The translations under genes and the position numbers were made by a program. Source: Candidatus Heimdallarchaeota archaeon (GTDB taxonomy: Archaea > Asgardarchaeota > Heimdallarchaeia > Hodarchaeales > Hodarchaeaceae). From it: a stretch of DNA of 11,497 bases. The notes below the pieces were generated by a model. That model was given only the letters and a program-made list of their open reading frames with translations. It was not told the DNA's origin and made no database searches. Numbering within the stretch: position 1 is the first letter of the stretch; each line of letters begins with the position of its first letter. The DNA lies in contig DXJL01000029.1 of NCBI GenBank assembly GCA_019057635.1, positions 1 through 11,497 on the forward strand, in the 5' to 3' direction. This document shows, one piece after another, positions 1 to 11,497 of the stretch.

Positions 1-2
1 CA

Positions 3-1952
3 AATGGACTAGCAGCATTTTTTAGTTGGGTTGACCCTCAAACATGGTATCCAGAAGGTCGTTATTGGGGACAATCACAATATATAGGAACACCCCTTTC
101 AGCAGTAATCTTACACCAGCTATTTCTGTTGCTTGGAATTCCAGCTTCATTAGAATTTACAGCATATTTGCAGCCTCCAATATTTGGAGCACTTACCTGT
201 GTGGCAATATACTTCCTAGGAAAAGAAATTGCTAACAAGAAAGTTGGCTTATTAGCAGCTTTATTTCTCTCAATCTCTGCAGGCCATCTACAACGTACTA
301 TTGCAGGCTTTTTTGATAATGAAGCTTTTGGTATTTTACTCTTAGTCTTAATCTTATACTTTTATGCCCGAGCTTTAAGAACAGGATCTGCATCCATGAC
401 TGTGTTTGCAGGTATTAGTTTAGGAATATTATCCGGCTCTTGGGGAGCCTCCACATATATATTCAGTCTATTAGCCCTGCATGCATTTATTTTAATATTA
501 ATGAGAAAAGATTCAGATCGACTATTGCTAGCGTACGGCGGCTCAATTATGATTGGCTCTTTCATCATGACCCTTATACCCAGAAACGGACCTGGATCGA
601 TTTTATCGACTGATGGATTGGTTCCACTAGGAGTTGTCGTTTTACTAATCTTAGTCACACTCTATAGAAATATATTAGCAATATATGATCTTACTGATGT
701 TAAAGCACGAATAAGACCGTATTTTCCAATCATTGGATTGGGAATTGTTATAGGTATAGTGGTACTTCTCCTTTCAGGAGTTGTGACCAATATTTCATCA
801 AAATTTATTACAGTCCTCTTCCCCTTCTTTAGAGATGAAACACCAATTCTTAAATCAGTTAGTGAACATCAATTGGTTTCTTGGGCAGGTTTCTTCCGAA
901 ATAATGGTATCCTATTATTCTTGCTACCATTAGCTATGTATTACTTGTATGAGAAACCAACGGAGAGAAATTTGTTACTATTAATCTTTGGATTTACTGC
1001 AATATATTTCGCTGGCTCTATGGTACGATTGGCACTGATTTTGGCACCCGCAGCTGCATTACTAGCCGCAAAGGCCATTGATCAAACTCTATTACCTTTT
1101 GTGTTAACATTCCAAGAGCGTTTTGCGTTAAGTCGAAGGAAAACACGACTCGTCCAACCCATGTCTAATGAACACACAGCGATCGCGTTTTCATTCATTG
1201 GTCTCTTCTTATTATTTTCGGTCCTTAACGCGACACAAGCAGCAATTAATTCGACTCAAGCTCCTTCCATACTTACAATTGTTCCTGGTAGTGGAGGTCA
1301 ATCGTTAATCATCGGTAATGATTGGCAAGAAGCCATTGGATGGTTAGATTACCATACAACAGTAAATGATGTCACCGCTTCATGGTGGGACTATGGTTAT
1401 TGGATAAGTGGAAATTCAAATGCCACAATCTTGGTGGACAATGCTACAATCAACAGCACCAAAATAGGAAATGTTGGGTGCATGTTGGTTCTCAACCCGC
1501 GGCAATCATTGAAGATAGCTAAAATATACGATGTGACATATATTGCCCTTCTTGTATCAGATGGATATGGAACTTACGGATTGGATTCTGATCTTGGAAA
1601 AGTTCCATGGTTCGTCCGTATCGGAGAACAAAGTGGGAATATCTTCCAGATCGATCAAGATGACTATTTAGAATTTGATTCACGAGGCCAATATATCACT
1701 GGATATGTCGATAAGTTCTATGATTCTGTCTTTTGGGCTCTCTTCACAGCTGGAGTTTCAGAGGAAGCTTATAGTAGTCGAATTACTCAATATAGTCCAA
1801 TTATAGACAACGCTCCTGCAGCTCGAGGTTTTTCACCTGAATATGCAGAGTATGCAAACTATTACGAACTTGCATACAAAACAGCTCACGATTGGATCTA
1901 TATCTATAAGATTTTGTGGGATGTCATACCCCCAGGTGCTATAGCACCCTAG
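3..1952 (+). CDS. aglB: Oligosaccharyltransferase AglB/STT3 (5'-partial; starts upstream of the window)
   Basis: WWDYG motif, GFFDNE, SVSEHQ, MVRL, DNATIN..IG and DLGK(VPW) DK motif; many TM segments. The frame is open from base 3 (NGLAAFFSWVDPQTWYPEGR, the STT3 'W.D..TWYP.GR' motif), so the ORF-track start at 129 is not the true start. Confidence 0.96.
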   Translation, partial: NGLAAFFSWVDPQTWYPEGRYWGQSQYIGTPLSAVILHQLFLLLGIPASLEFTAYLQPPIFGALTCVAIYFLGKEIANKKVGLLAALFLSISAGHLQRTIAGFFDNEAFGILLLVLILYFYARALRTGSASMTVFAGISLGILSGSWGASTYIFSLLALHAFILILMRKDSDRLLLAYGGSIMIGSFIMTLIPRNGPGSILSTDGLVPLGVVVLLILVTLYRNILAIYDLTDVKARIRPYFPIIGLGIVIGIVVLLLSGVVTNISSKFITVLFPFFRDETPILKSVSEHQLVSWAGFFRNNGILLFLLPLAMYYLYEKPTERNLLLLIFGFTAIYFAGSMVRLALILAPAAALLAAKAIDQTLLPFVLTFQERFALSRRKTRLVQPMSNEHTAIAFSFIGLFLLFSVLNATQAAINSTQAPSILTIVPGSGGQSLIIGNDWQEAIGWLDYHTTVNDVTASWWDYGYWISGNSNATILVDNATINSTKIGNVGCMLVLNPRQSLKIAKIYDVTYIALLVSDGYGTYGLDSDLGKVPWFVRIGEQSGNIFQIDQDDYLEFDSRGQYITGYVDKFYDSVFWALFTAGVSEEAYSSRITQYSPIIDNAPAARGFSPEYAEYANYYELAYKTAHDWIYIYKILWDVIPPGAIAP

Positions 1953-1969
1953 AATGCGTAAATACTCAT

Positions 1970-2000
1970 GGAGAACCACGTGTTCTCCCATAGCTCTTTT
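1970..2000 (+). terminator. Hairpin plus pyrimidine tract after aglB
   Basis: GGAGAAC (1970-1976) / GTTCTCC (1982-1988) perfect 7-bp stem with 5-nt loop, followed by CTCTTTTTCC, 17 nt after the stop codon. Confidence 0.5.
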
Positions 2001-2013
2001 TCCTCCTCATATA

Positions 2014-2058
2014 CTCGAACTCCTCAGTAGAAAATAAATTATAAAGTAGGATTTCGAG
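2014..2058 (+). promoter_or_regulatory. Putative DP1 promoter: TATA box bracketed by an inverted repeat
   Basis: TTATAAA at 2039-2045 is preceded by an A-rich BRE-like tract. CTCGAACTCCT (2014-2024) and AGGATTTCGAG (2048-2058) form a 10/11 inverted repeat. Confidence 0.4.
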
Positions 2059-2150
2059 GAACTAACTTCATGATTGTTAGGTTAATTATAGACTACCTAG
2101 TCCCAAGCAATTTTACTTAACAATACTGGATAATAAGGAGCACTAATATC

Positions 2151-3704
2151 TTGGAAAGGGATGAAATAATAAGGATTTTTCTCCAATTCAATTATAATAT
2201 TAGTGCGGAAACTTTAGAATATATAAAAAATCAGAATATTTCAGAGAAGGAACTAAAAGCCTTATTAAAAAGTCAAACTCTGATAGAACCAGTGATTTCA
2301 GTAAACATCTTAAAAGAGGGAATTAGAGGGAAATCAGTAAAGAAATTAGGAATCCCTTCTCCTTCTGAGGTTGAAAACAGAGTTCACATCAGAGAAAAAT
2401 CCCCAATGCAGGAAACAGTGCAAAAGCCTGTAGAAAAACTACAATATTCTATAGATTTAGATATTCCCTATAAGCTATCACAGGAACCTAAAATCACAGT
2501 TTTTCGGAACCTTTTTCTTGACCGATATCAAACACTATCAAGAATATTACTTGAAAATTTAGAACCAGAAACCACAGTCTTGAAGTACAACTTACAACTT
2601 GAGGAAATTCCTCACCAGAGGGCTGGTATCCTCATTGGGATGATTCATGATACGCAAGTTTTACATACAAACCGCTTTGTAATACAACTAGAAGATCATC
2701 TAAGTGGCCATACAACAAAATGCGTCATCGTAAAAGAATGTCCATCATTTCCCGAATATAGAAGGATCCTAAGGGACTCAGTAATAGGAGTGTCTGGAGT
2801 ATTACCAAAAAATTTTCATGAGGGACACCTTACAGCATTTTGGGGAAAAGATATCATTCGACCCTCCTTTAGAGCACATCACTTCGCAATTTCAGAACCC
2901 TCAACCAAAGTATTATGTCTTTCGGATATACACATTGGTTCAAAAAGATTTTCAAACCGATTATTCTCCCGTCTTGTCGCATATCTAAATGAAAAAGTTA
3001 ATATACCAGATTTCCCATTTTCTGCTGCTAATATTTCCTCTATTATCATTGCTGGAGATTTAGTGGAGGGAACAGGGGTTGTAACAAAGGAAGACAGTAA
3101 ACTCAGTATCGACTCCTTTGAAGTACAATATGAACAACTCACCAAGTTACTGAATGAAATTCCAAAGCGTATTACAATATTCACAATTCCTGGAGAACAT
3201 GATGCGTCTCAATTGGCTATCCCCCAACCGGCAATTGACAAGAAGATTGGAAAATCTCTATATTCGCTTCCAAATGTAAAAAACCACGGAAATCCTCTTC
3301 GTCTAACAATCAACGGGATGAAATTCTTGATTTTTCATGCACAAAGTTGTGAAAATAGCTTTCATCGACTATTGAAAATTGAACAGACTTCCCTGATAAA
3401 TGGGTTCAAAGAATTACTGGAATATCGTCATTTATCACCAGAATATGGGTCATTTGCTGCATATGCACCTTATTCAAAAGATTATCTTGTGATTAATGAA
3501 ATACCAGATGTATTAGTGACGGGGCATTTTCATCAAGCTGGAAAGGAGATTTACAAAGGTGTACGTATAGCTACATGCGGAACATTCAAGAACCCTCACA
3601 AAACAACAGAAAAAACATATGCATTAACTTCTGTTGGTGTGTTTCCAGTTATAGATACGGGAACGGGGGAAATAACAATGATAGATCTGAAACAAATTCC
3701 TTAA
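2151..3704 (+). CDS. polB: DNA polymerase D small subunit DP1 (PolD1; calcineurin-like phosphoesterase/exonuclease), divergent
   Basis: N-terminal helical region, F..RY..L motif, OB-fold-like region, then SDIHIGS, AGDLVEG, PGEHDA, LAIPQP, NP, RHLSPEYG, DYLVINEIPD and TGHFH, colinear with DP1 motifs. TTG start with AGGAG at 2136-2140. Adjacent to cdc6. Confidence 0.88.
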   Translation: MERDEIIRIFLQFNYNISAETLEYIKNQNISEKELKALLKSQTLIEPVISVNILKEGIRGKSVKKLGIPSPSEVENRVHIREKSPMQETVQKPVEKLQYSIDLDIPYKLSQEPKITVFRNLFLDRYQTLSRILLENLEPETTVLKYNLQLEEIPHQRAGILIGMIHDTQVLHTNRFVIQLEDHLSGHTTKCVIVKECPSFPEYRRILRDSVIGVSGVLPKNFHEGHLTAFWGKDIIRPSFRAHHFAISEPSTKVLCLSDIHIGSKRFSNRLFSRLVAYLNEKVNIPDFPFSAANISSIIIAGDLVEGTGVVTKEDSKLSIDSFEVQYEQLTKLLNEIPKRITIFTIPGEHDASQLAIPQPAIDKKIGKSLYSLPNVKNHGNPLRLTINGMKFLIFHAQSCENSFHRLLKIEQTSLINGFKELLEYRHLSPEYGSFAAYAPYSKDYLVINEIPDVLVTGHFHQAGKEIYKGVRIATCGTFKNPHKTTEKTYALTSVGVFPVIDTGTGEITMIDLKQIP

Positions 3705-4927
3705 TAACGATTGAAGTCAAATTGTTTGTCTTTCTGTAACGTAGATTCAACTAAGGAACGGGGAATGCTAAAATGAATCTCCTTAGTTCTTCCATGTCTA
3801 CCTCTAGACACCACACGTGCAGATATAATACCGAGAGCATCAAGCTCGTTGATTAAATCTCCAACACGTCGCTGTGTAAGTGAGTCCATACCCGCATCAC
3901 GGCACAATTGGACATATTTCTCGTATACATCACCCGTCGAGACAGCATCGGGATCACTTGTAACATTTTCAAGTTGATAGATAGAGGAAATGACAAATTT
4001 TGACTGAACAGGAAGAGTGCTGATAACTTCAGTGATTGTATTTCGTTCAATCGCTCCTTGGGCCTTCTTAACATGGGATTGAGTAATAACTTCCGAGTGT
4101 CCGCGTTCGGCAATTTCTGCTGCAACCCGAAGTAAATCAATAGCTCTTCGTGCATCACCATGCTCCTGAGCAGCAATGGCAGCGATCAAATTGATGACAC
4201 CTTTATCTAAGGTATTAGGACGAAAAGCTAAATCCGCTCTTTCAACAAGAATATCAGTTATTTCTGGGGCCTCGTATGGTTTAAAAACAAGTTCTTCTTC
4301 TGAAAGAGAGGAAAGAACTCGAGGATCCAAATAATCCTTAAATTTCAGATCGTTAGAAATTCCAATAATGCTAACTTTGGCACTAGAAAGATCTGAATTA
4401 ATACGAGTTAAACTATAGAGCGTTTCATTCCCAGATTTTTTGATTAGACTATCAATTTCGTCCAATACAACAATGAAAAGTGATTCCCGCTGATCAAGAC
4501 CTTGCTTAAATCTAGTAAAAACTTCATCAGTTGCAAGACCAGTGAAAGGGACTTCAATACCTAAGGTACTGCAAAGATCTGCAAAGACACGATAGTTGGT
4601 GTCGACATTATTACAATTTAGATAAGCCACCTCAACTCGTAAACCATGATCGGGTGCTTTTTCCTTTAACATGCTTAAAACATACTTAGAAACAGCAGTC
4701 TTACCAGTACCAGTTTTACCGAAGCACAAGATATTACTAGGTTTAGCTCCTCGTAAAACAGAAGCTAAAATATAGCCCAATTGCTTAATTTGTTCCGTTC
4801 GGTGAGGAAGATTCTTAGGTACAAAGGAACTATCTAAAACATCGCGTCTCTGAAATAGTTTAGGTGATTTAAGATACCCCTCAAAGATTTCATCTAATGT
4901 TAAATCCGAATCATCGTTTTGTTTCAT
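3701..4927 (-). CDS. cdc6: Orc1/Cdc6 replication initiator (AAA+ ATPase plus winged helix)
   Basis: LPHR, Walker A GKTGTGKT, Walker B VVLDEID, sensor-1 IGISN, LDPRVLSSL, sensor-2 GDARRA, C-terminal wing GRHGRT. ATG 4927 is preferred over GTG 4942 because GGTGGGTG (SD-like) lies 8 nt upstream. Confidence 0.97.
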   Translation of the reverse strand: MKQNDDSDLTLDEIFEGYLKSPKLFQRRDVLDSSFVPKNLPHRTEQIKQLGYILASVLRGAKPSNILCFGKTGTGKTAVSKYVLSMLKEKAPDHGLRVEVAYLNCNNVDTNYRVFADLCSTLGIEVPFTGLATDEVFTRFKQGLDQRESLFIVVLDEIDSLIKKSGNETLYSLTRINSDLSSAKVSIIGISNDLKFKDYLDPRVLSSLSEEELVFKPYEAPEITDILVERADLAFRPNTLDKGVINLIAAIAAQEHGDARRAIDLLRVAAEIAERGHSEVITQSHVKKAQGAIERNTITEVISTLPVQSKFVISSIYQLENVTSDPDAVSTGDVYEKYVQLCRDAGMDSLTQRRVGDLINELDALGIISARVVSRGRHGRTKEIHFSIPRSLVESTLQKDKQFDFNRY

Positions 4928-4964
4928 TCGTAATGCACCCACCGAAATCTTAACAAATCTACAC

Positions 4965-5091: not shown

Positions 5092-5415
5092 TTATTCATC
5101 TGGAAGAGATAGAAGAGAAGCAGTTCTCGACACGGTGACTTGAGATTCCCTCATACGTCTGATAGCCTCCAACTTCTCGAGGAGGGAAGTAATATCAAAA
5201 TGCTGTTTGAATCGGGAATCAATCGAGCTTAACTTCTGCCAGGCAAGTTCAGGACTACGACCTAAATATTTCCAAGAATATTTACCTGCTTGTTTCCCTT
5301 CTAAACGAGCAGAGTGATAAGTGACAAGCCACAAGTAGGGACCGTGATAGACCCCATCATTACATCGACAGCCAGCTTTTCCGCACTTCTGCCATTTAGC
5401 AAGGACAGAGACCAT
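5092..5415 (-). CDS. DUF6788-like small Cys/His (putative Zn-binding) protein
   Basis: CGKAGCRCNDGVYHGPY matches the CGKxxCxCxxGxxHGPY signature as I recall it, followed by WKYLG. TATAAA (minus strand, 5441-5446) about 26 nt upstream suggests a leaderless transcript. Confidence 0.75.
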   Translation of the reverse strand: MVSVLAKWQKCGKAGCRCNDGVYHGPYLWLVTYHSARLEGKQAGKYSWKYLGRSPELAWQKLSSIDSRFKQHFDITSLLEKLEAIRRMRESQVTVSRTASLLSLPDE

Positions 5416-5450: not shown

Positions 5451-5463
5451 TCTTACCATATCA
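5451..5463 (+). repeat. Dispersed motif copy 1 (TCTTACCATATCA)
   Basis: Perfect 11-mer core; intergenic. Confidence 0.85.
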
Positions 5464-5477
5464 TTATTCTAAATAAA

Positions 5478-5681
5478 TCACTTAGATTCATCATCGGTGG
5501 TTTTAGGGGATCTAATCGACTCATGAACGACTTTAAAGGTTTCTAGTTCCTGTTGTATTTTCTTATCAAATCGGGAAGCAGATTGAATAGAACGGCCAAG
5601 GATAAATAACACAATCTTGACAATTGCTCTTTTTCCACGTTTCCTTCCTGGAAATATTACTTGATATGGTGAGACACTCAT
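5478..5681 (-). pseudogene. Short hypothetical ORF, probably a truncated gene fragment
   Basis: 67 codons from ATG 5681. The protein-like amphipathic segment KRAIVKIVLFILGRSIQSASRFDKKIQQEL is followed by a low-information tail. Lies directly downstream of another broken gene. Confidence 0.4.
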
Positions 5682-5716
5682 AATGCAAACCAAATCTTAA
5701 AAATTCTAATTTCTGC

Positions 5717-6141
5717 TTAAAACGAAGATTTAATCCACAATTCTCTCCTAGTAAGACTATTATTGAAAATAATTGGAAGGAAAATGAACAAACCAGTAAC
5801 CGTATCAGTACAGGCAATTAGGATATAAGCGAATTCAACTCCTTCAGTAATCCAAAAAAGAATGATGATTAATGCAAAAGCAAATCGTACTACACTAGAC
5901 CCGAAACCAATGAATAAATAATTGGTAACATTATGAAAGCATGCGTACAATAAGAAATAACCAACAAGAAGTAGAAATAAACCACTTATGTATACGAATA
6001 TCATATTATCAGGTTTAGTCACCCCAAAATAGATATCAATAAATCTGAAAGAAAGATTACTCTAAATCCAAGGATTAAATCATAAATTCCCCAAATAAAA
6101 AAACCTAGCTTTATGAATTTTACATCAGTGTACTGAGACAT
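5717..6141 (-). pseudogene. Small 4-TM membrane protein gene with a frameshift
   Basis: SD GAGGAG precedes ATG 6141. The frame reads MSQYTDVKFIKLGFFIWGIYDLILGFRVIFLSDLLISILG* (stop 6019-6021). One extra G in the G4 run (6022-6025) fuses it to the 5717-6022 hydrophobic ORF, giving 141 aa. Confidence 0.7.
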
Positions 6142-6233
6142 AAATTTACACTCCTCAAAAGAAAGAAAGCATCTCTTTTAAATTTTATTAAGAGAGGGAG
6201 ATGAGAGGTGATTATGACTTGAAAACGTTACTC

Positions 6234-6533
6234 CTAATTCAAAGCTCTATAAAAGACTTTAGGTCGACCCCTATGACGACGATCCTCAGAATAACTAGCC
6301 ACATATCCCTTAAGAATTAAACGAAGGAGACTGTCATAGAGAGTGGATCGAGCAATTCCTGTTAAAGACACAAGCTTCCCTCTAGTAAGAGGCCCTTGCT
6401 GTTCGAGGATGCCTAAAACCTGGAGATCTAATTCATGAACAATAGAAGGTTTAACCTGCGATAAATTATGCCTATGGTCAGAGGATCCAATTTTAGGTTT
6501 TCCGATTACATGAAGAAGTTGATTATTGGACAT
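6234..6533 (-). CDS. TrmB-like stand-alone winged-helix DNA-binding protein (paralog A)
   Basis: GPLTRGKLVSLTGIARSTLYDSLLRL..KGYV HTH and RGRPKVFY wing. ATG 6533 has a GGTGA SD 5 nt upstream (ORF track uses GTG 6542). Confidence 0.88.
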   Translation of the reverse strand: MSNNQLLHVIGKPKIGSSDHRHNLSQVKPSIVHELDLQVLGILEQQGPLTRGKLVSLTGIARSTLYDSLLRLILKGYVASYSEDRRHRGRPKVFYRALN

Positions 6534-6720
6534 GTGAATCACCGTTTATTACACGAGAGAAAGGAATCCACTGAATATAAAACACCACAATATGTAGACA
6601 TTACGTTGGGAAAAAAGATTCAGCAGTACAGAAACACACGAAAGATAAAAAAATTCGAAAAGAAGAATCACGAAAAAACAGAAATTGTATTTCTCACTGA
6701 ATAAAGAGAAGAAAGGAAAA

Positions 6721-7203
6721 TTACATCAGAATTTTCGGCAATTGATTAACTTTTTTACCATTAATACGATATTCTAAAGGATTGACACCTTCTTGACGTT
6801 CTACAAAACCTGATTCGACAAGACGATTCAAATTTGTTTGGATCGTTGAAATACCAATCTCTTCTTTCAAATAATGGGTATAGAGCTCCTGGATTTCACG
6901 AGCAGTAAGGAAATTTGGATTTGCACGGTTGGAGACAATAGATAGAATGCGCTCTTTCTTGGTGTCAAGATCAGATAACGAAACTACCTTGTGTAAGGAA
7001 GAGGAGTCAAAAACGGTTTCTTCAGAAGTTTCGTTTTGCATAAGCAAGGATTCGATAAGATCATCAATTTGCCTCTGTTGACCTCTAGATAATTCTAAAT
7101 ATCCTTCTACTAAAGTATGAAGCGGTCCAAGACGTATTTTCCGATCAAACGCAATAGTAATCTTATCATTATTCGCGGTAATTTTAGAACCAGTTTCACG
7201 CAT
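6721..7203 (-). CDS. Two-domain protein with C-terminal winged helix
   Basis: C-terminal KERILSIV...LTAREIQELY...EEIGISTIQTNLNRLVESGFVERQ....EYRI is a wHTH pattern. Small N-terminal beta/alpha region and acidic linker. Confidence 0.8.
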   Translation of the reverse strand: MRETGSKITANNDKITIAFDRKIRLGPLHTLVEGYLELSRGQQRQIDDLIESLLMQNETSEETVFDSSSLHKVVSLSDLDTKKERILSIVSNRANPNFLTAREIQELYTHYLKEEIGISTIQTNLNRLVESGFVERQEGVNPLEYRINGKKVNQLPKILM

Positions 7204-7270
7204 AATTTCTACACGTCACTTGAAAGATTGTTAAGTAATTCAGAGTAGATAAATTCATTCATCCTTATCT

Positions 7271-7860
7271 TTCACAATTAATACGAGGAGATTCACCCTA
7301 ATAAAGATTAATCAATACCCCAATATTACAAAAAACGATTGCTACCGACAAAATCAAGATAAAACGTTCACATGTAAAACCCCTTTCACTTGTGAACAAG
7401 ATTTCACATAAATTAGAGTGAATAGATAGAAAACGATGAAATGGCAAGATAAAGGTATCTTATGCCCTTAGTAAGAAAAAACAGACAAAAAAAGACTTTA
7501 ATTAGAAAATCGTAACACACTTCCTAAATTCAACTTAACAGTTGGTCATTCCGATGTGAAGGAAGAAAATTAACTTCGCAAGGAAATTCTACCAAGTTCC
7601 AATGGAAATAAGGGGGATGGTGTTAATCAATGTGAATAAGGATAAAAACAAAATTTATTTATAGAAAATGATTTATTAAGCTAAAAATTAAAATAAACTT
7701 ATGTGATTAACTAAAAATGAATTGATATGTTAATAGAACTTATTTTACTTTAACAAAAACATTTTTAACCTAGATTTCCAGTGAAACAAAAAAGTGAAAA
7801 AAGGCATAAATTTGTGAAACAAAAAATCTTAGTGAAAAAATTATTCCTAATATATGTGAA
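7271..7860. repeat. Array of 14 GTGAA/TTCAC pentamers
   Basis: TTCAC at 7271, 7292, 7367, 7385, 7403; GTGAA at 7392, 7418, 7556, 7632, 7781, 7794, 7814, 7832, 7856. GTGAAACAAAAAA is exactly repeated at 7781 and 7814. Confidence 0.7.
7596..7787. other. Candidate replication origin (oriC): ORB - DUE - inverted ORB
   Basis: GTTCCAATGGAAATAAGGGGG (7596-7616) is a canonical-looking ORB with G-string. Inverted GTTTCACTGGAAATCTAGG ends at 7787 (12/14 core match). The intervening 7621-7770 has 25 G+C in 150 bp. An extra mini-ORB TTCGCAAGGAAAT lies at 7575-7587, and cdc6 is 2.7 kb away. Confidence 0.75.
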
Positions 7861-8017
7861 ACGAACTTCCCCAAGAGTCTCGTACCGTCAAAACCGTCCA
7901 AAGGATGAAATTCTTTATGTCTCCACTAGGATGTTCAAGAATACAAAAGATCATATTGACCTTATACTGAAAATCTTAAAAAACATGACCGCCTAAATTA
8001 CTCAATTCAGTTTCATA

Positions 8018-8335
8018 ATGTTCTGGCGAAGAGAAATGGGCCGATATATGGATGAAATGCTAGTAATCGAAACAGATGAGGAAATGACAACTGAAAGTCA
8101 TCCTCATGAAATAATCTCTAGTTTTACAAATCAAACCGACTTAAAAGTATTTACTGCATTAAAAGAACACCAACCAGCCACACGCATGGAATTGTGCGAT
8201 AAAACAGGAATAGCTCGAACGACAATTTATGATGCCCTAACAAGACTAATGGTCCTGAAAGTCGTGACAAAATATTCACCCCCTGTCAGTAAAAAAGGTC
8301 GACCCAAAGTATTTTATCGAACTATCTCAGAATAA
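8018..8335 (+). CDS. TrmB-like stand-alone winged-helix DNA-binding protein (paralog B)
   Basis: QPATRMELCDKTGIARTTIYDALTRL HTH and KGRPKVFY wing; 30/61 ungapped identities to paralog A. Start uncertain (several downstream in-frame ATGs). Confidence 0.88.
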   Translation: MFWRREMGRYMDEMLVIETDEEMTTESHPHEIISSFTNQTDLKVFTALKEHQPATRMELCDKTGIARTTIYDALTRLMVLKVVTKYSPPVSKKGRPKVFYRTISE

Positions 8336-8407
8336 ACGCTTGATCGTTATTTTCATCATTTCGGGGTATTTAACGAGACAATTCAGATAGAATATTTTAT
8401 CCCCACC

Positions 8408-8626
8408 ATGGATATCTCTCCCAATCAAAATACACGTATCGATGACAGTAGTGGTGACTACTCCCAGTTACTGAGAGAAGCATTTAACCCAGAAAATCTC
8501 AAACAATGCGAACTATCCCAAGAAAAAACATATTTAATTGAGAGACCAAAGGGAAGAAAACTTGGAAAAGAAACGAACGAAAAAAATCACATAAACCTGG
8601 TTAGAGTGAAATCCAGGAGGGAATGA
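8408..8626 (+). CDS. Hypothetical small hydrophilic protein (72 aa)
   Basis: ATG-started ORF co-oriented with and just downstream of paralog B, with a double stop (TGA TAA). No recognisable motif or SD. Confidence 0.3.
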   Translation: MDISPNQNTRIDDSSGDYSQLLREAFNPENLKQCELSQEKTYLIERPKGRKLGKETNEKNHINLVRVKSRRE

Positions 8627-8656
8627 TAAGGAAAGATCGAGGGGAAATAGAAACTC

Positions 8657-8671
8657 ATTCATATGGTAAGA
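8657..8671 (-). repeat. Dispersed motif copy 2 (TCTTACCATATGAAT on minus strand)
   Basis: ATTCATATGGTAAGA is the exact reverse complement of 9028-9042. Confidence 0.88.
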
Positions 8672-8748
8672 TCCCTTAAAAGGTTGAGGCGAAAGGAGCA
8701 TGTTATGACGAATTCCCACACCCGCTCTGGTTGCCAGTCCAACCCGAC

Positions 8749-8763
8749 TATATATATATATAT
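8749..8763. repeat. (TA)7 dinucleotide tract
   Basis: TATATATATATATAT, with shorter TATATATA runs near 8781 and 8816. Confidence 0.8.
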
Positions 8764-8769
8764 TCTATT

Positions 8770-8780
8770 TCTTACCATAT
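8770..8780 (+). repeat. Dispersed motif copy 3 (TCTTACCATAT)
   Basis: Perfect 11-mer core. Confidence 0.8.
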
Positions 8781-8964
8781 TATATATACCATCATATCAT
8801 GATAGTACCTCTTTTTATATATACACATTTCACGAAATTTCACTTCTTCGGGGTACTACTTGGTAGATAACACCTCTCAGGCCTTTTTTCCACTCTTAAA
8901 ATTTTTAGTCGTTGGAAAATGCTTAATGGACAGGTTTCGCTTTTCGCATAGCTAGCCGTAGATA

Positions 8965-8984
8965 TTCCATCGGAAATGTGGGGG
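8965..8984 (+). promoter_or_regulatory. Isolated ORB-like element
   Basis: TTCCATCGGAAATGTGGGGG has the same TTCCA-N2-GGAAAT-N2-GGGGG layout as 7597-7616 (16/20 identical). Confidence 0.65.
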
Positions 8985-8992
8985 TGGTGGTT

Positions 8993-9025
8993 TGAAAAAT
9001 ATTTCACCTTATGAAAAATATTTCA
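8993..9025. repeat. Tandem pair of quasi-palindromic 14-mers TGAAAAATATTTCA
   Basis: Exact copies at 8993-9006 and 9012-9025 (19-bp period); each is TGAAA-N4-TTTCA. Confidence 0.8.
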
Positions 9026-9027
9026 AT

Positions 9028-9045
9028 TCTTACCATATGAATATA
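9028..9045 (+). repeat. Dispersed motif copy 4 (TCTTACCATATGAATATA)
   Basis: 17/18 identical to the copy at 11261. Confidence 0.88.
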
Positions 9046-9240
9046 CTTTTTCCTCCATTCTCTAGCTTCTTTTTTTCTACCTGCAGATAATCTTTCTCCT
9101 ATTTTCCAATATTCTAACCTAATATTCAACATTGTTTTCTAGTTTTTGCTTTAGATAATATATCTAAACAATCTGATCTTGATCTCTGTCAGAATAGTTT
9201 TTTTACATCAAACATCAAAGACTCCCTTGGAGACTATACG

Positions 9241-10059
9241 ATGTCTAGCAGATGTAAAACACATGAAGAAAATGCTACAGCCTTAGAAGTAGAAAATCCA
9301 AGCTCTGCTTTTGAATTGTACAAAAGAGCTGCAAAGTGTTTTGGTAAAGATAATGATGTAAAAAGTGGTAGGAAATGTCTCGAAAAAGCGGTAAAATTAC
9401 TTCAAAATACAGACAATAGTAATGAAAATATATTCCAAACTTTGGAAAAGTATACTAGTGTTTCCGAAATTTATAATCAGATTGGTAAACCATCAGAATC
9501 AGAAAAAGTGATGAAAAACGTTTATAAGAAATTCATTGACCTGGTTAAGAGTATTAGATCAGAAGTTAAGGGGTTGGAAGATCCCTATTCTTCAGAAAAA
9601 AGGTTAACATTAGCAGCAGCTTATGCTAAAGCAGCAAATGATCATAATTTGAGAAAAGCGTGCTGGGTGGATCTAGGTGATAAATTTCGAGAGAAAGCAA
9701 CTAAAATTTCCAATCCTCGGCAAGCATTAGAATTGTATCTTCAAGCGGCTAAGAAATATAATAAAGGGGATAATAAGAAATTAGTAAATGAGATGTATAA
9801 AGAAGCTGCCAACAATTTTACCAGAAGGGGAAATCAGATTGAAAAATCCAAGAAGGATCTAATTATGGCAATTGAGAATTATAGACAGGCTGCAATTTTA
9901 AATAACATGGCTGATAATAAAAAAGCCGCAACAGCAATGAGTGAAAAACTCGAAGAATTATGTGAGATTATTGGTTTTCCTCAAAATCATGTTTTTGACT
10001 ATTTAGAAAAGGAATTAGGGTTTTCAGACGTAAGTGTCATCATTGATGAGCATTCTTGA
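9241..10059 (+). CDS. Alpha-helical repeat protein, SNAP/TPR-like
   Basis: Recurring unit: SAFELYKRAAKCF, QALELYLQAAKKY, MAIENYRQAAIL, plus degenerate QTLEKYTSVSEIY. K/E/A-rich; GGAG 8 nt upstream of the ATG. Confidence 0.7.
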   Translation: MSSRCKTHEENATALEVENPSSAFELYKRAAKCFGKDNDVKSGRKCLEKAVKLLQNTDNSNENIFQTLEKYTSVSEIYNQIGKPSESEKVMKNVYKKFIDLVKSIRSEVKGLEDPYSSEKRLTLAAAYAKAANDHNLRKACWVDLGDKFREKATKISNPRQALELYLQAAKKYNKGDNKKLVNEMYKEAANNFTRRGNQIEKSKKDLIMAIENYRQAAILNNMADNKKAATAMSEKLEELCEIIGFPQNHVFDYLEKELGFSDVSVIIDEHS

Positions 10060-10216
10060 TCTGCAGTTCTTTGACAAGACTTCCGCGCAACACAGGTGGA
10101 ACTCTGGAAATACACATTGAAAATAATACTACCAAGCCTGTAATTTGTCTTCCGAGTCTTTCCCTTTATTCATGAGAGAGGCCAATTTCATTCGTCGTAG
10201 AAACTTGATGACAAGT

Positions 10217-10254
10217 TCTTACCATATGAGTAAATTAATAATTCATTTGATTTC
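10217..10254 (+). repeat. Dispersed motif copy 5, long 38-bp form
   Basis: TCTTACCATATGAGTAAATTAATAATTCATTTGATTTC; 35/38 identical to 11261-11298. Confidence 0.92.
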
Positions 10255-10341
10255 AGATGGTTTTTATATCGCGCATCGTAGAGGAACCGGCTTAGCACCT
10301 GAAAACACCGTCTCTAGATAGAAGAATCAATGTGAAAATAC

Positions 10342-11151
10342 GTGGAGATAGCAGTAATATATTTTTCAGGAACGGGAGTCACAGAAGGTTACGCGGAAAT
10401 AATTGCCCGTGAATTGGAGCACCAGGGAGCGAATGTCGCATTGCATAATATCACGAGTTTGCAAAAGCGTAAGAAATCAGTGATTTTTGAGCAATATGAT
10501 GCCTTGATTTTTGGTTTTCCCGTTTATGGAGGGTGGCTTCCTAATGTTGCAGAATCTTGGCTTTCTGGTCTAACAGGAACTCAACGGGTGGCCATGTACT
10601 TCACTTACGGAGGCCGCGACCTGGAATATGCCCATCAAACTGGCTTTTACTTGCTCTCTCAAGCAAAGTTCGTTGTTATTTTATCCGCTGAATTTTTAGG
10701 AAAACATTCATTTAACGTTGCGAAAGGATGGAATTTAGCAGCTGATCGTCCTAACGATCAAGATGTGTTGGTGGCCAAGCAATTTGCAAAAGAATGTTTT
10801 GAACGCTTTCAAAAAGAGTCTATTAGATGGAGTTATGATTTAACGAATTTTTCTTACCGTCTAAGAGTCACAAAAGAAATTGATGGTCCTTTTGCCATTT
10901 TTCTCCCCTCTAAATCTCAAGATTGTCGTATGTGTTATCGATGTGAAAATGAATGTCCCACAAATGCGTTTAACCTCACATTAGGACAAGCTACTAATGG
11001 GATATGTATAAGCTGTATGCATTGTGTTTTTATCTGCCCTGATGAGGTAATTGAGGTTGGTGATGCCACTAAACTATTTCAACATTTTGGAACTCAACTA
11101 AAATTAACCCACGAGAAGGTTATAAACAAAAAAAGCAGAATAATCTATTGA
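10342..11151 (+). CDS. EFR1-family flavodoxin-ferredoxin fusion (flavodoxin fold plus 2x[4Fe-4S])
   Basis: YFSGTGVT FMN loop, FGFPVYGG, FTYGGRD, and two CxxCxxCxxxCP motifs (CRMCYRCENECP, CISCMHCVFICP). Confidence 0.9.
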   Translation: MEIAVIYFSGTGVTEGYAEIIARELEHQGANVALHNITSLQKRKKSVIFEQYDALIFGFPVYGGWLPNVAESWLSGLTGTQRVAMYFTYGGRDLEYAHQTGFYLLSQAKFVVILSAEFLGKHSFNVAKGWNLAADRPNDQDVLVAKQFAKECFERFQKESIRWSYDLTNFSYRLRVTKEIDGPFAIFLPSKSQDCRMCYRCENECPTNAFNLTLGQATNGICISCMHCVFICPDEVIEVGDATKLFQHFGTQLKLTHEKVINKKSRIIY

Positions 11152-11260
11152 AATTGGTTTTTACTGACTTTGGTATTGAGACTGGTTTCCAAACGGTACT
11201 TCTTCTCCTTTTAGTTGATGTGAATTATGAAAGGTTGCTCCATTGGGCAGATATTTTTGA

Positions 11261-11298
11261 TCTTACCATATGAGTATATTAATAATTCATGAGATTTC
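11261..11298 (+). repeat. Dispersed motif copy 6, long 38-bp form
   Basis: TCTTACCATATGAGTATATTAATAATTCATGAGATTTC; 35/38 identical to 10217-10254. Confidence 0.92.
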
Positions 11299-11497
11299 GA
11301 GTGATATTCATGACTAAATTTGTCAAACAACGCAGTAAAACCGCGTTCTGGACAGGATGAGTCACACATCCACTATCCGGCAGGTTAGCAACACGAAAAT
11401 GTATACTATCAATTGGAACCACTTGGGAAGCAGGATGAAAACACTGAAGAATCTTCCGAGCCACGGTATAATCGGCAATTCCCACCCCTTACAGGAA
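11279..11497 (-). pseudogene. Possible degraded C-terminus of an agmatine/peptidylarginine deiminase-family gene
   Basis: ADYTVARKILQCFHPASQVVPIDS...SGCVTHP resembles the family's terminal 'D..A..IL...FP...VV.ID......GG..HC.T..P' segment. In-frame TAA at 11489-11491 upstream. Runs to the window edge. Confidence 0.35.

Follow-up and report, generated by a model that had tools for sequence, protein, structure and literature searches.

A short box placed at fixed distances around an origin recognition box: a candidate accessory protein-binding element of a predicted orc1-linked origin in an Asgard archaeal genus

The 11,497-nucleotide contig DXJL01000029.1 of Candidatus Heimdallarchaeota archaeon (Hodarchaeales; assembly GCA_019057635.1), in full referred to below as the window, carries six exact copies of the 11-mer TCTTACCATAT, at positions 5451+, 8661-, 8770+, 9028+, 10217+ and 11261+, all of which were found where a preliminary description of this DNA had placed them. 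The window is one entire contig (C204) of an assembly of 3.19 Mb in 214 contigs (genome G000). The reading that we favor, with moderate confidence, is that the element, in its complete form the 13-mer TCTTACCATATGA, is a conserved accessory protein-binding box of the orc1-linked origin in this Asgard genus. Three of its copies are ancestral, namely copy A in the promoter region of the gene for a DUF6788 protein, and copies B and C around one of the origin recognition boxes (ORBs). The deep conservation of the box, its fixed spacing to the ORB and its copy in a promoter together argue for a site, integral to the origin, that a sequence-specific protein would recognize.

The origin locus and the conserved geometry of the box

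The locus is predicted from its sequence to be an orc1-linked chromosomal replication origin, since both strict ORBs of the assembly are found here, the orc1 gene adjoins them, and the stretch between the ORBs is AT-rich and constant in length. This matches the standard archaeal arrangement, which is described as having ORBs on either side of an AT-rich unwinding region adjoining the initiator gene (PMC4010727, PMC12141716). In a canonical ORB, a G-string comes after a TCCA-NN-GGAA core; the strict pattern TTCCANNGGAAAN{1,14}GGGG has two matches in the 3.19 Mb of the assembly, ORB-a and ORB-b (Table 1), with none for the reversed control. The length of the inter-ORB stretch is 223–225 bp in 8 of 8 genomes, and its AT content is 73–78% in six relatives, whose loci as a whole have 62–66%, and 67% in this genome. 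The earlier placement of the box beside oriC is therefore borne out by the ORBs and the orc1 gene at the locus.

DNA and protein searches of 30 relatives, followed by inspection of at least 20 loci, give a common gene order for the genus, which runs from AglB through DP1 (the small subunit of DNA polymerase D), orc1, DUF6788, box A, the winged-helix genes wH1 and wH2, and an AT-rich spacer with ORB-a to wH3. After wH3 there follow an inverted ORB-b, the AT-rich inter-ORB stretch, an inverted box B, ORB-c, a variant box TTCTTACCAGGT, box C and the gene for a glycerophosphodiester phosphodiesterase (GDPD). The orc1 product is 78–98% identical across the loci of the relatives; at the DNA level these are only about 65–75% identical to the window, and the box is nonetheless exact, with at least one exact copy 223–340 bp past wH3 in 12 of 13 loci and with the box B columns TGGTAAGA invariant in all 12 aligned origin cores. 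The inverted box B ends 25–26 nt before the ORB-c core in seven genomes, and the co-oriented TCTTACCA begins 19–22 nt past the ORB-c G-string in six, such that boxes B and C are mutually inverted and bracket ORB-c at fixed spacing. Box A, which reads ATATGGTAAGA on the gene strand, ends 24–40 nt (mode 29) 5′ of the DUF6788 start in 15 of the 19 DUF6788 loci found in a collection of species-representative genomes; the remaining four comprise one locus with a 1-mismatch box, one with a box split by a miniature inverted-repeat transposable element (MITE), and two lacking box A. A smaller set of loci has an exact box A upstream of DUF6788 in 13 of 17. Copy C lies 40–75 nt 5′ of GDPD in the relatives, the promoters at A and C being deduced from the sequence.

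The unit of conservation was determined from 52 distinct copies at the origin loci in this genome and its relatives. A G is found at position +1 in 71% of these and an A at +2 in 87%, with no conservation of the bases 5′ of the box or past +2, and the unit is therefore the 13-mer, in agreement with the extension proposed previously. In one genome from another genus of this order, two ORBs are present and TCTTACCAAAT comes 44 nt after them; about 140 bp beyond lies an inverted TCTTACCATGT. An order-wide search with an exact composite box-ORB pattern, which variant ORB cores elsewhere slip past, recovered the unit at the origin in seven genomes along with three unrelated matches.

In the mechanism proposed here, a lineage-specific DNA-binding protein would bind the boxes and would help or control the action of Orc1/MCM at the origin, as is the case for ucm and its binder UBP in Sulfolobus, and the same protein, when bound at the flanking promoters, may tie origin-proximal transcription to the state of the origin in a manner resembling that of DnaA boxes. 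Since the ORBs are present here as separate elements, the box would be an accessory site and not one for the initiator. The candidate binders inferred for it are DUF6788, wH1, wH2, wH3 and the three other Orc1/Cdc6 paralogues. DUF6788 has box A in its own promoter region and is single-copy in 15 or 16 of 18 genomes of the genus; its homologues are 105–123 aa long, with an isoelectric point (pI) of 9.2–10.2 in 15 of them, and its structure model has a pLDDT of 91. The literature searched yielded no mention of DUF6788, and sequence searches of the PDB with DUF6788 and wH2 gave nothing meaningful, wH3 being matched there by a 109-aa archaeal regulator.

The operator alternative raised in the preliminary description fares differently in its two forms: a protein operator is closer to the outcome than cassettes are, and the purely transcriptional version, in which one regulator serves the origin-flanking genes (DUF6788, GDPD and the accessory genes) with no role in replication, appears unlikely. 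Such an operator would be in line with the fixed distances of box A from DUF6788 and of copy C from GDPD, with the arrangement in genome G018, where every gene that diverges from the core is preceded, 70–125 nt upstream, by a co-oriented copy, and with the AT-rich, TATA-like tracts that come after most copies. It leaves unexplained, however, why copy B is positioned so constantly relative to ORB-c in an inter-ORB stretch where there is no gene to serve, and why A and C are oriented differently relative to their genes. Moreover, no common function links the genes that follow the copies (SNAP-like, flavodoxin-ferredoxin, PhzF, methyltransferases, radical SAM and serine hydrolase), and outside the locus hardly any regulon exists.

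The positions of the boxes beside true ORBs at fixed spacing, together with the four Orc1/Cdc6 paralogues encoded in the assembly, also bring up the possibility of a diverged mini-ORB, i.e. a site for one of the other three paralogues comparable to those of the secondary initiators at Sulfolobus origins, which are reported to use variously the classic ORB, a mini-ORB or neither (PMC4010727). In an unscored comparison by eye, about 7 of the 10 positions that the ORB core TCCAnTGGAAA specifies agree with the reverse complement of the box, TCATATGGTAA, and this weak likeness could be due to chance. The box has neither the TCCA...GGAA dyad nor a G-string, and none of the other three orc1 paralogues has a cluster of boxes nearby when all 21 genomic copies are considered, which makes the mini-ORB improbable.

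It has to be noted that several observations speak against an accessory protein-binding box as well. Box A is missing in two genomes, G001 and G016, although DUF6788 is present in both. No clear switch in GC skew was seen at the locus in twenty 20-kb samples around it in one closed relative. The DUF6788 model has no recognized DNA-binding fold, with a best E of 0.57 in Foldseek against the PDB and a best Z of 4.7, to ribosomal proteins, in a wide VIA search; taken by itself, this failure of a predicted model to match counts neither for nor against DNA binding. The boxes differ in their orientation to the nearest gene, with ATATGGTAAGA reading towards DUF6788 at A and TCTTACCATAT towards GDPD at C, and the box, unlike ucm, is not spread over hundreds of sites. 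Finally, the accessory genes in this genome, G002 and G018 have exact copies lacking extended flank similarity, and plain segmental duplication therefore does not explain the boxes of these genes.

Some further observations were made on the origins of the relatives. The alignment of 12 origins contains two more invariant or near-invariant blocks, CGACAAAAA about 50 nt from ORB-b and CATAACATG directly after ORB-c. In G016 (locus L028, 4493–4530), copy C is replaced by a perfect palindrome, which two inverted variant boxes of the sequence TCTTACCAGGT form at a distance of 16 nt. On a closed contig of G015 (L019, L026), the locus is split at a breakpoint in the wH2–wH3 spacer into parts about 1 Mb from each other, with orc1-DUF6788-wH1-wH2-ORB-a at 1.68 Mb and wH3-ORB-b-box-ORB-c-box-GDPD at 2.73 Mb. 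The metagenome-assembled genome G018 has two versions of the origin core (L024 on C250 and L025 on C259), about 79% identical, each with 4–5 boxes and with different flanking genes; these could represent two origins, or two strains in one bin. The box A that is split by a MITE belongs to G018 as well (L014), the MITE being of the same family as the element at the end of the window.

Genome-wide counts and local rearrangements

Mapping of the motif across the genome and in the relatives, as had been proposed, showed 21 exact 11-mers in the assembly, compared with 8 for the reversed control word, and a concentration at the origin locus: 6 of the 21 fall in the 0.36% of bases that make up the window. 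With up to one mismatch the window has 7 matches, a number that was reached in 0 of 200 dinucleotide shuffles (mean 0.33, largest 3). The 11-mer was correctly reported as missing from the 4.9-kb block at the left end (0 copies in 1–4942), where its 8-mer core occurs once, at 4699, within orc1; the 8-mer core itself shows no enrichment (144 vs 184). The 1-mismatch copy reported on the minus strand does exist, in that the 11-mer spans 5664–5674, and it is probably a chance match, because it lies inside a coding remnant and is not kept, even at one mismatch, in the versions of the open reading frame (ORF) in the relatives.

Outside the window there are 15 copies, of which 10 are inside ORFs of at least 90 aa and 5 are intergenic. 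Similarly, 11 of the 20 copies examined (of 21) in the relative G004 are coding, several of them at orthologous coding sites, and the 11-mer is at control level in the 12 genomes searched outside the genus. The total of 21 against 8, with 10 of 15 outside copies being coding, therefore speaks for no genome-wide repeat family and for hardly any regulon, and a genome-wide repeat or regulon was dropped as an explanation. The suggestion of a repetitive extragenic palindromic (REP) or MITE-end repeat did not hold up either, given a count near the control, dispersed copies that are mostly coding, and a true MITE of this genome that has other ends. An RNA gene was also rejected, as Rfam gave two sub-threshold matches only and the window has no tRNAs. 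A few of the intergenic copies away from the origin consist of TCTTACCATATGAACAA, a gap of about 10–18 nt, and TATATGAAC or a near variant; this pattern, seen at C67:28097 and C213:8078 in this genome and at L036 and L045 in G004, is kept between two species and looks like a separate small conserved element. The sequencing runs that contain the window sequence come from marine sediment and cold seeps.

As judged by alignment with the relatives, the extra copies in this genome are of local origin, by inversion of the core, a further copy past ORB-b, and duplication of a box together with the GDPD promoter. In this genome, in G002, which is its closest relative, and in one G018 contig, the origin core has to be reverse-complemented before it aligns with the remaining nine; relative to wH3, the core of about 370 bp (8661–9038) is therefore inverted. 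It is bracketed by inverted boxes, 42 and 40 nt from its two ORBs, the box at 8659–8671 aligning with the outer copy C of the relatives once the core is reverse-complemented. The copy of the 9028 type is located 33 nt past the extended G/T run in this genome and G002, and 41 nt in one G018 contig.

The remaining extra copy, at 10217, matches 11261–11311 over 51 nt with 82% identity, and the segment 10217–10315 has 77% identity with the sequence in front of the intact G002 GDPD. Since 10217 and 11261 share box C and the GDPD promoter, the flavodoxin-ferredoxin gene sits between the old and the current promoter copy. The preliminary description had noted that co-oriented copies cut this part into units of 1189 and 1044 bp with one gene each, which is correct: the first holds the SNAP/Sel1-like gene and the second the flavodoxin + 4Fe-4S gene. 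The SNAP/Sel1-like gene is shared with G002 (87% identity) and missing at this position in nine other species, and the flavodoxin-ferredoxin gene is missing here in G002, which has a PhzF-like gene in its place, the order in G002 being SNAP-like gene, box, PhzF-like gene, box and intact GDPD.

The right end of the window was shaped by a MITE-like element, inserted precisely at the start codon of GDPD, that continues on contig C113 (reverse strand), the end of which overlaps the window end by 88 bp; the intact GDPD is on C113 past the element, which is the cause of the contig break. The ORF at 11279–11485 was dropped as a gene because it sits within this repeat. To the right of box A an insertion hot spot had been considered and was dropped, since the difference reflects a deletion that this genome has undergone at a 12-bp microhomology (5540–5551). 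The deletion (window 5467–5551) removed a multi-kb segment that is kept in G002, G004 and G018, with genes for a 393-aa iron-type alcohol dehydrogenase and for an uncharacterized protein of 495–530 aa; the undeleted form is present on contigs of the metagenome runs X3 and X4. The AT-rich spacer of 814 bp between wH2 and wH3 contains no box copies, and several GTGAAAC/TTTCAC repeats (within 7240–8017) flank a very AT-rich stretch at about 7640–7780; the spacer could serve as a further unwinding region or as a divergent promoter region.

Table 1. Positions of predicted genes, boxes, ORBs and other elements in the window
Feature	Position	Strand	Remarks
AglB-like oligosaccharyltransferase	3–1952	+	
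DNA polymerase D small subunit (DP1)	2151–3704	+	
orc1/cdc6 initiator	3701–4942	-	413-aa ORF; ORC1-type clusters in protein atlas, score 0.99
DUF6788 gene	5092–5415	-	107 aa, pI 9.5; Pfam PF20586, E 2.7e-8
Box A	5451–5463	+	35 nt 5′ of DUF6788 ATG; ATATGGTAAGA on gene strand
Fused coding remnant	5478–5681	-	Joins two truncated genes
1-mismatch box copy	5664–5674	-	Within the coding remnant
Membrane ORF	5717–6022	-	
wH1, small TrmB-like winged-helix protein	6234–6542	-	pI 10.3; syntenic genus-wide
wH2, C-terminal winged helix	6721–7203	-	160 aa; one copy each in 14/18 genus genomes, matches in 16/18
ORB-a, canonical	7597–7616	+	Strict ORB match, in AT-rich wH2–wH3 spacer
wH3, TrmB-like winged-helix protein, wH1 paralogue	8018–8335	+	Pfam TrmB E 6.9e-7; PDB 2d1h E 9e-5; syntenic
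Box copy	8659–8671	-	42 nt from ORB-c, on its G-string side
ORB-c, degenerate	8714–8742	-	Aligns with TCCAGTGGAAGGAAAGGTAGGTGTGGGA of relatives; fails ORB regex
Inter-ORB stretch, putative unwinding region	8743–8964		Contains the box at 8770
Box in inter-ORB stretch	8770–8782	+	Equals copy B of relatives
ORB-b, canonical	8965–8986	+	Strict ORB match
Extra box past ORB-b G-string	9028–9040	+	This subclade only
SNAP/Sel1-like helical-repeat gene	9241–10059	+	Accessory insert; Pfam scan
Box + GDPD promoter + frameshifted GDPD 5′ remnant	10217–10315	+	Older duplicate; remnant at 10257–10315
Flavodoxin + 4Fe-4S ferredoxin fusion gene	10342–11151	+	Accessory insert; Pfam scan
Box + GDPD promoter	11261–11309	+	Orthologous copy C; 87% identical to G002
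MITE-like element, first part	11310–11497		About 307 bp in total, about 40 copies in assembly, imperfect terminal inverted repeats

Homology breaks and the cassette interpretation

The preliminary description had proposed that the motif is the site of a cassette system. What stands of this is that in one subclade unrelated accessory genes are each found behind one co-oriented copy, and what is not supported is the system itself, for which no recombinase, site structure or joints were detected in the ORFs, sites and contigs examined. In its present form, this explanation would make the box the core site of a site-specific recombination system that takes up single-gene cassettes beside oriC and is able to flip the origin core, and we consider it quite improbable.

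Some of the evidence is nevertheless of the kind that such a system would produce. Three homology breaks have the first base of a box as their exact starting point (10217, 11261 and the last G002 copy), and the homology between this genome and G002 resumes exactly at that base; the three junctions of the GDPD type share the right flank from the first box base on, their left flanks scoring no better than shuffles. Each of the inserted accessory genes in this genome, G002 and G018, which are functionally unrelated, is located behind an exact copy with no flank similarity past the 13-mer, and the boxes of these genes point away from the core on both sides. In addition, the inverted origin core of this genome and G002 has inverted boxes on its two sides, 42 and 40 nt from the ORBs.

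The expected coincidence of gene-gain breakpoints with the motif is, however, only half seen, because the left-hand breaks fall elsewhere: the left end of the flavodoxin-ferredoxin insert is the GDPD pseudogene fragment, and the variable segment after the SNAP-like gene begins at the stop codon of that gene. Breaks at box edges are also expected if selection forbids breaks within the origin core and the GDPD promoter, and the distance from the origin core to the GDPD promoter box is only about 12–45 nt. The absence of a recombinase from the window was confirmed for its 10 ORFs. A Pfam scan of these and of a further 10 ORFs taken from relatives, five of them located between or next to box copies and five at other variable positions of the locus, which did not extend to the rest of the genome, gave no recombinase domain at or above the cut-off; the sole trace is that wH1 and wH3 have weak HTH_7 matches below the threshold. 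The site consists of one 13-mer and lacks a second arm as well as an attC-like fold; only 13 nt are conserved and there is no extended inverted repeat. The preliminary description had likewise set the site apart from attC. Joints at the boxes and strand-changing joints were not found on contigs of the four metagenomes X1–X4 spanning 10217 and 11261, a weak test since rare isomers would escape contigs.

The three ancestral boxes are fixed in stable synteny in at least nine species that have no cassettes. A fixed place beside syntenically stable genes had been named in advance as an outcome contradicting the cassettes, and it is what box A before DUF6788 and boxes B and C around the ORB present. 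The broader idea that the box is a crossover site, at which an unrecognized system flips the core of about 370 bp and captures accessory genes so that oriC becomes a platform for gene capture, is a long shot too; the recombinase of that system would be encoded elsewhere, or would have to be sought among DUF6788 and the resolvase-HTH-like winged-helix proteins as candidates.

Comparison with known recombination and origin systems

The resemblance to integron attC sites and to Xer/dif modules is limited to the co-oriented short sites that part single unrelated genes in this genome, G002 and G018, and to some homology breaks at the site edge. No integrase is present in the ORFs scanned, and attC needs imperfect inverted repeats of about 60–140 bp that form a bulged hairpin. 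Xer/dif differs in its 28-bp layout of two inverted arms of about 11 bp around a spacer of 6–8 bp, whereas here nothing is conserved past +2 and the nearest inverted boxes are about 80–110 bp apart, and the ORFs scanned contain no Xer gene. In contrast to both systems, the boxes are ancient fixed parts of the origin in species without cassettes.

A parallel in layout is offered by the bacterial DnaA boxes, which occur both at oriC and in the dnaA promoter. Like these, the box is short and asymmetric, forms a cluster at the origin and recurs in the promoter of a neighboring replication-linked gene, so that one protein could be responsible for origin function as well as for autoregulation. The two differ in the domain of life, the initiator and the sequence.

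Among the archaea, an additional cis element between inverted ORBs is described for Haloarcula hispanica oriC1, where a G-rich inverted repeat acts as an enhancer that modulates origin activity (Wu et al. 2013, PMC3936714). The likeness ends with this position, as that enhancer is a G-rich inverted repeat of an unrelated sequence type, is specific to haloarchaea and has no promoter copies.

Archaeal origins are known in detail for only a few cultured lineages, and no description of origin motifs in the present group was found in the literature searched. A recent study is cited as having placed the eukaryotes as sister to Hodarchaeales, a position to which the replisome markers of the citing paper give little support (PMC12680538). 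The present analysis yields a predicted origin map for this genus, with three ORBs, an inter-ORB stretch and boxes, along with locally encoded candidate binders, and indicates that the surroundings just outside an origin core can undergo rapid gene turnover.

The closest counterpart is ucm, an 11-bp non-ORB motif between inverted ORBs that is reported to be essential for oriC1 of Sulfolobus; it occurs at oriC1–3 and at more than 300 genomic sites, and its binder UBP is a basic protein of 111 aa with a pI of 9.3 that contacts MCM (Dhanaraju et al. 2025, PMC12141716). The box differs from it in being multi-copy, in bracketing an ORB, in recurring in a neighboring promoter and in being confined to the origin locus, and no protein of the window convincingly resembles any PDB chain in sequence or fold. 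By description, which is the level at which the two motifs were compared, both are short (11 bp), non-ORB, conserved within their lineage and located in an AT-rich inter-ORB stretch, and a small basic protein is at hand in both cases, the size and pI of UBP being close to those of the DUF6788 homologues. The ubp gene is described as confined to Desulfurococcales and Sulfolobales, and the authors ask about analogues in other lineages (PMC12141716); a short box at fixed spacing to an ORB in an Asgard genus bears directly on that question.

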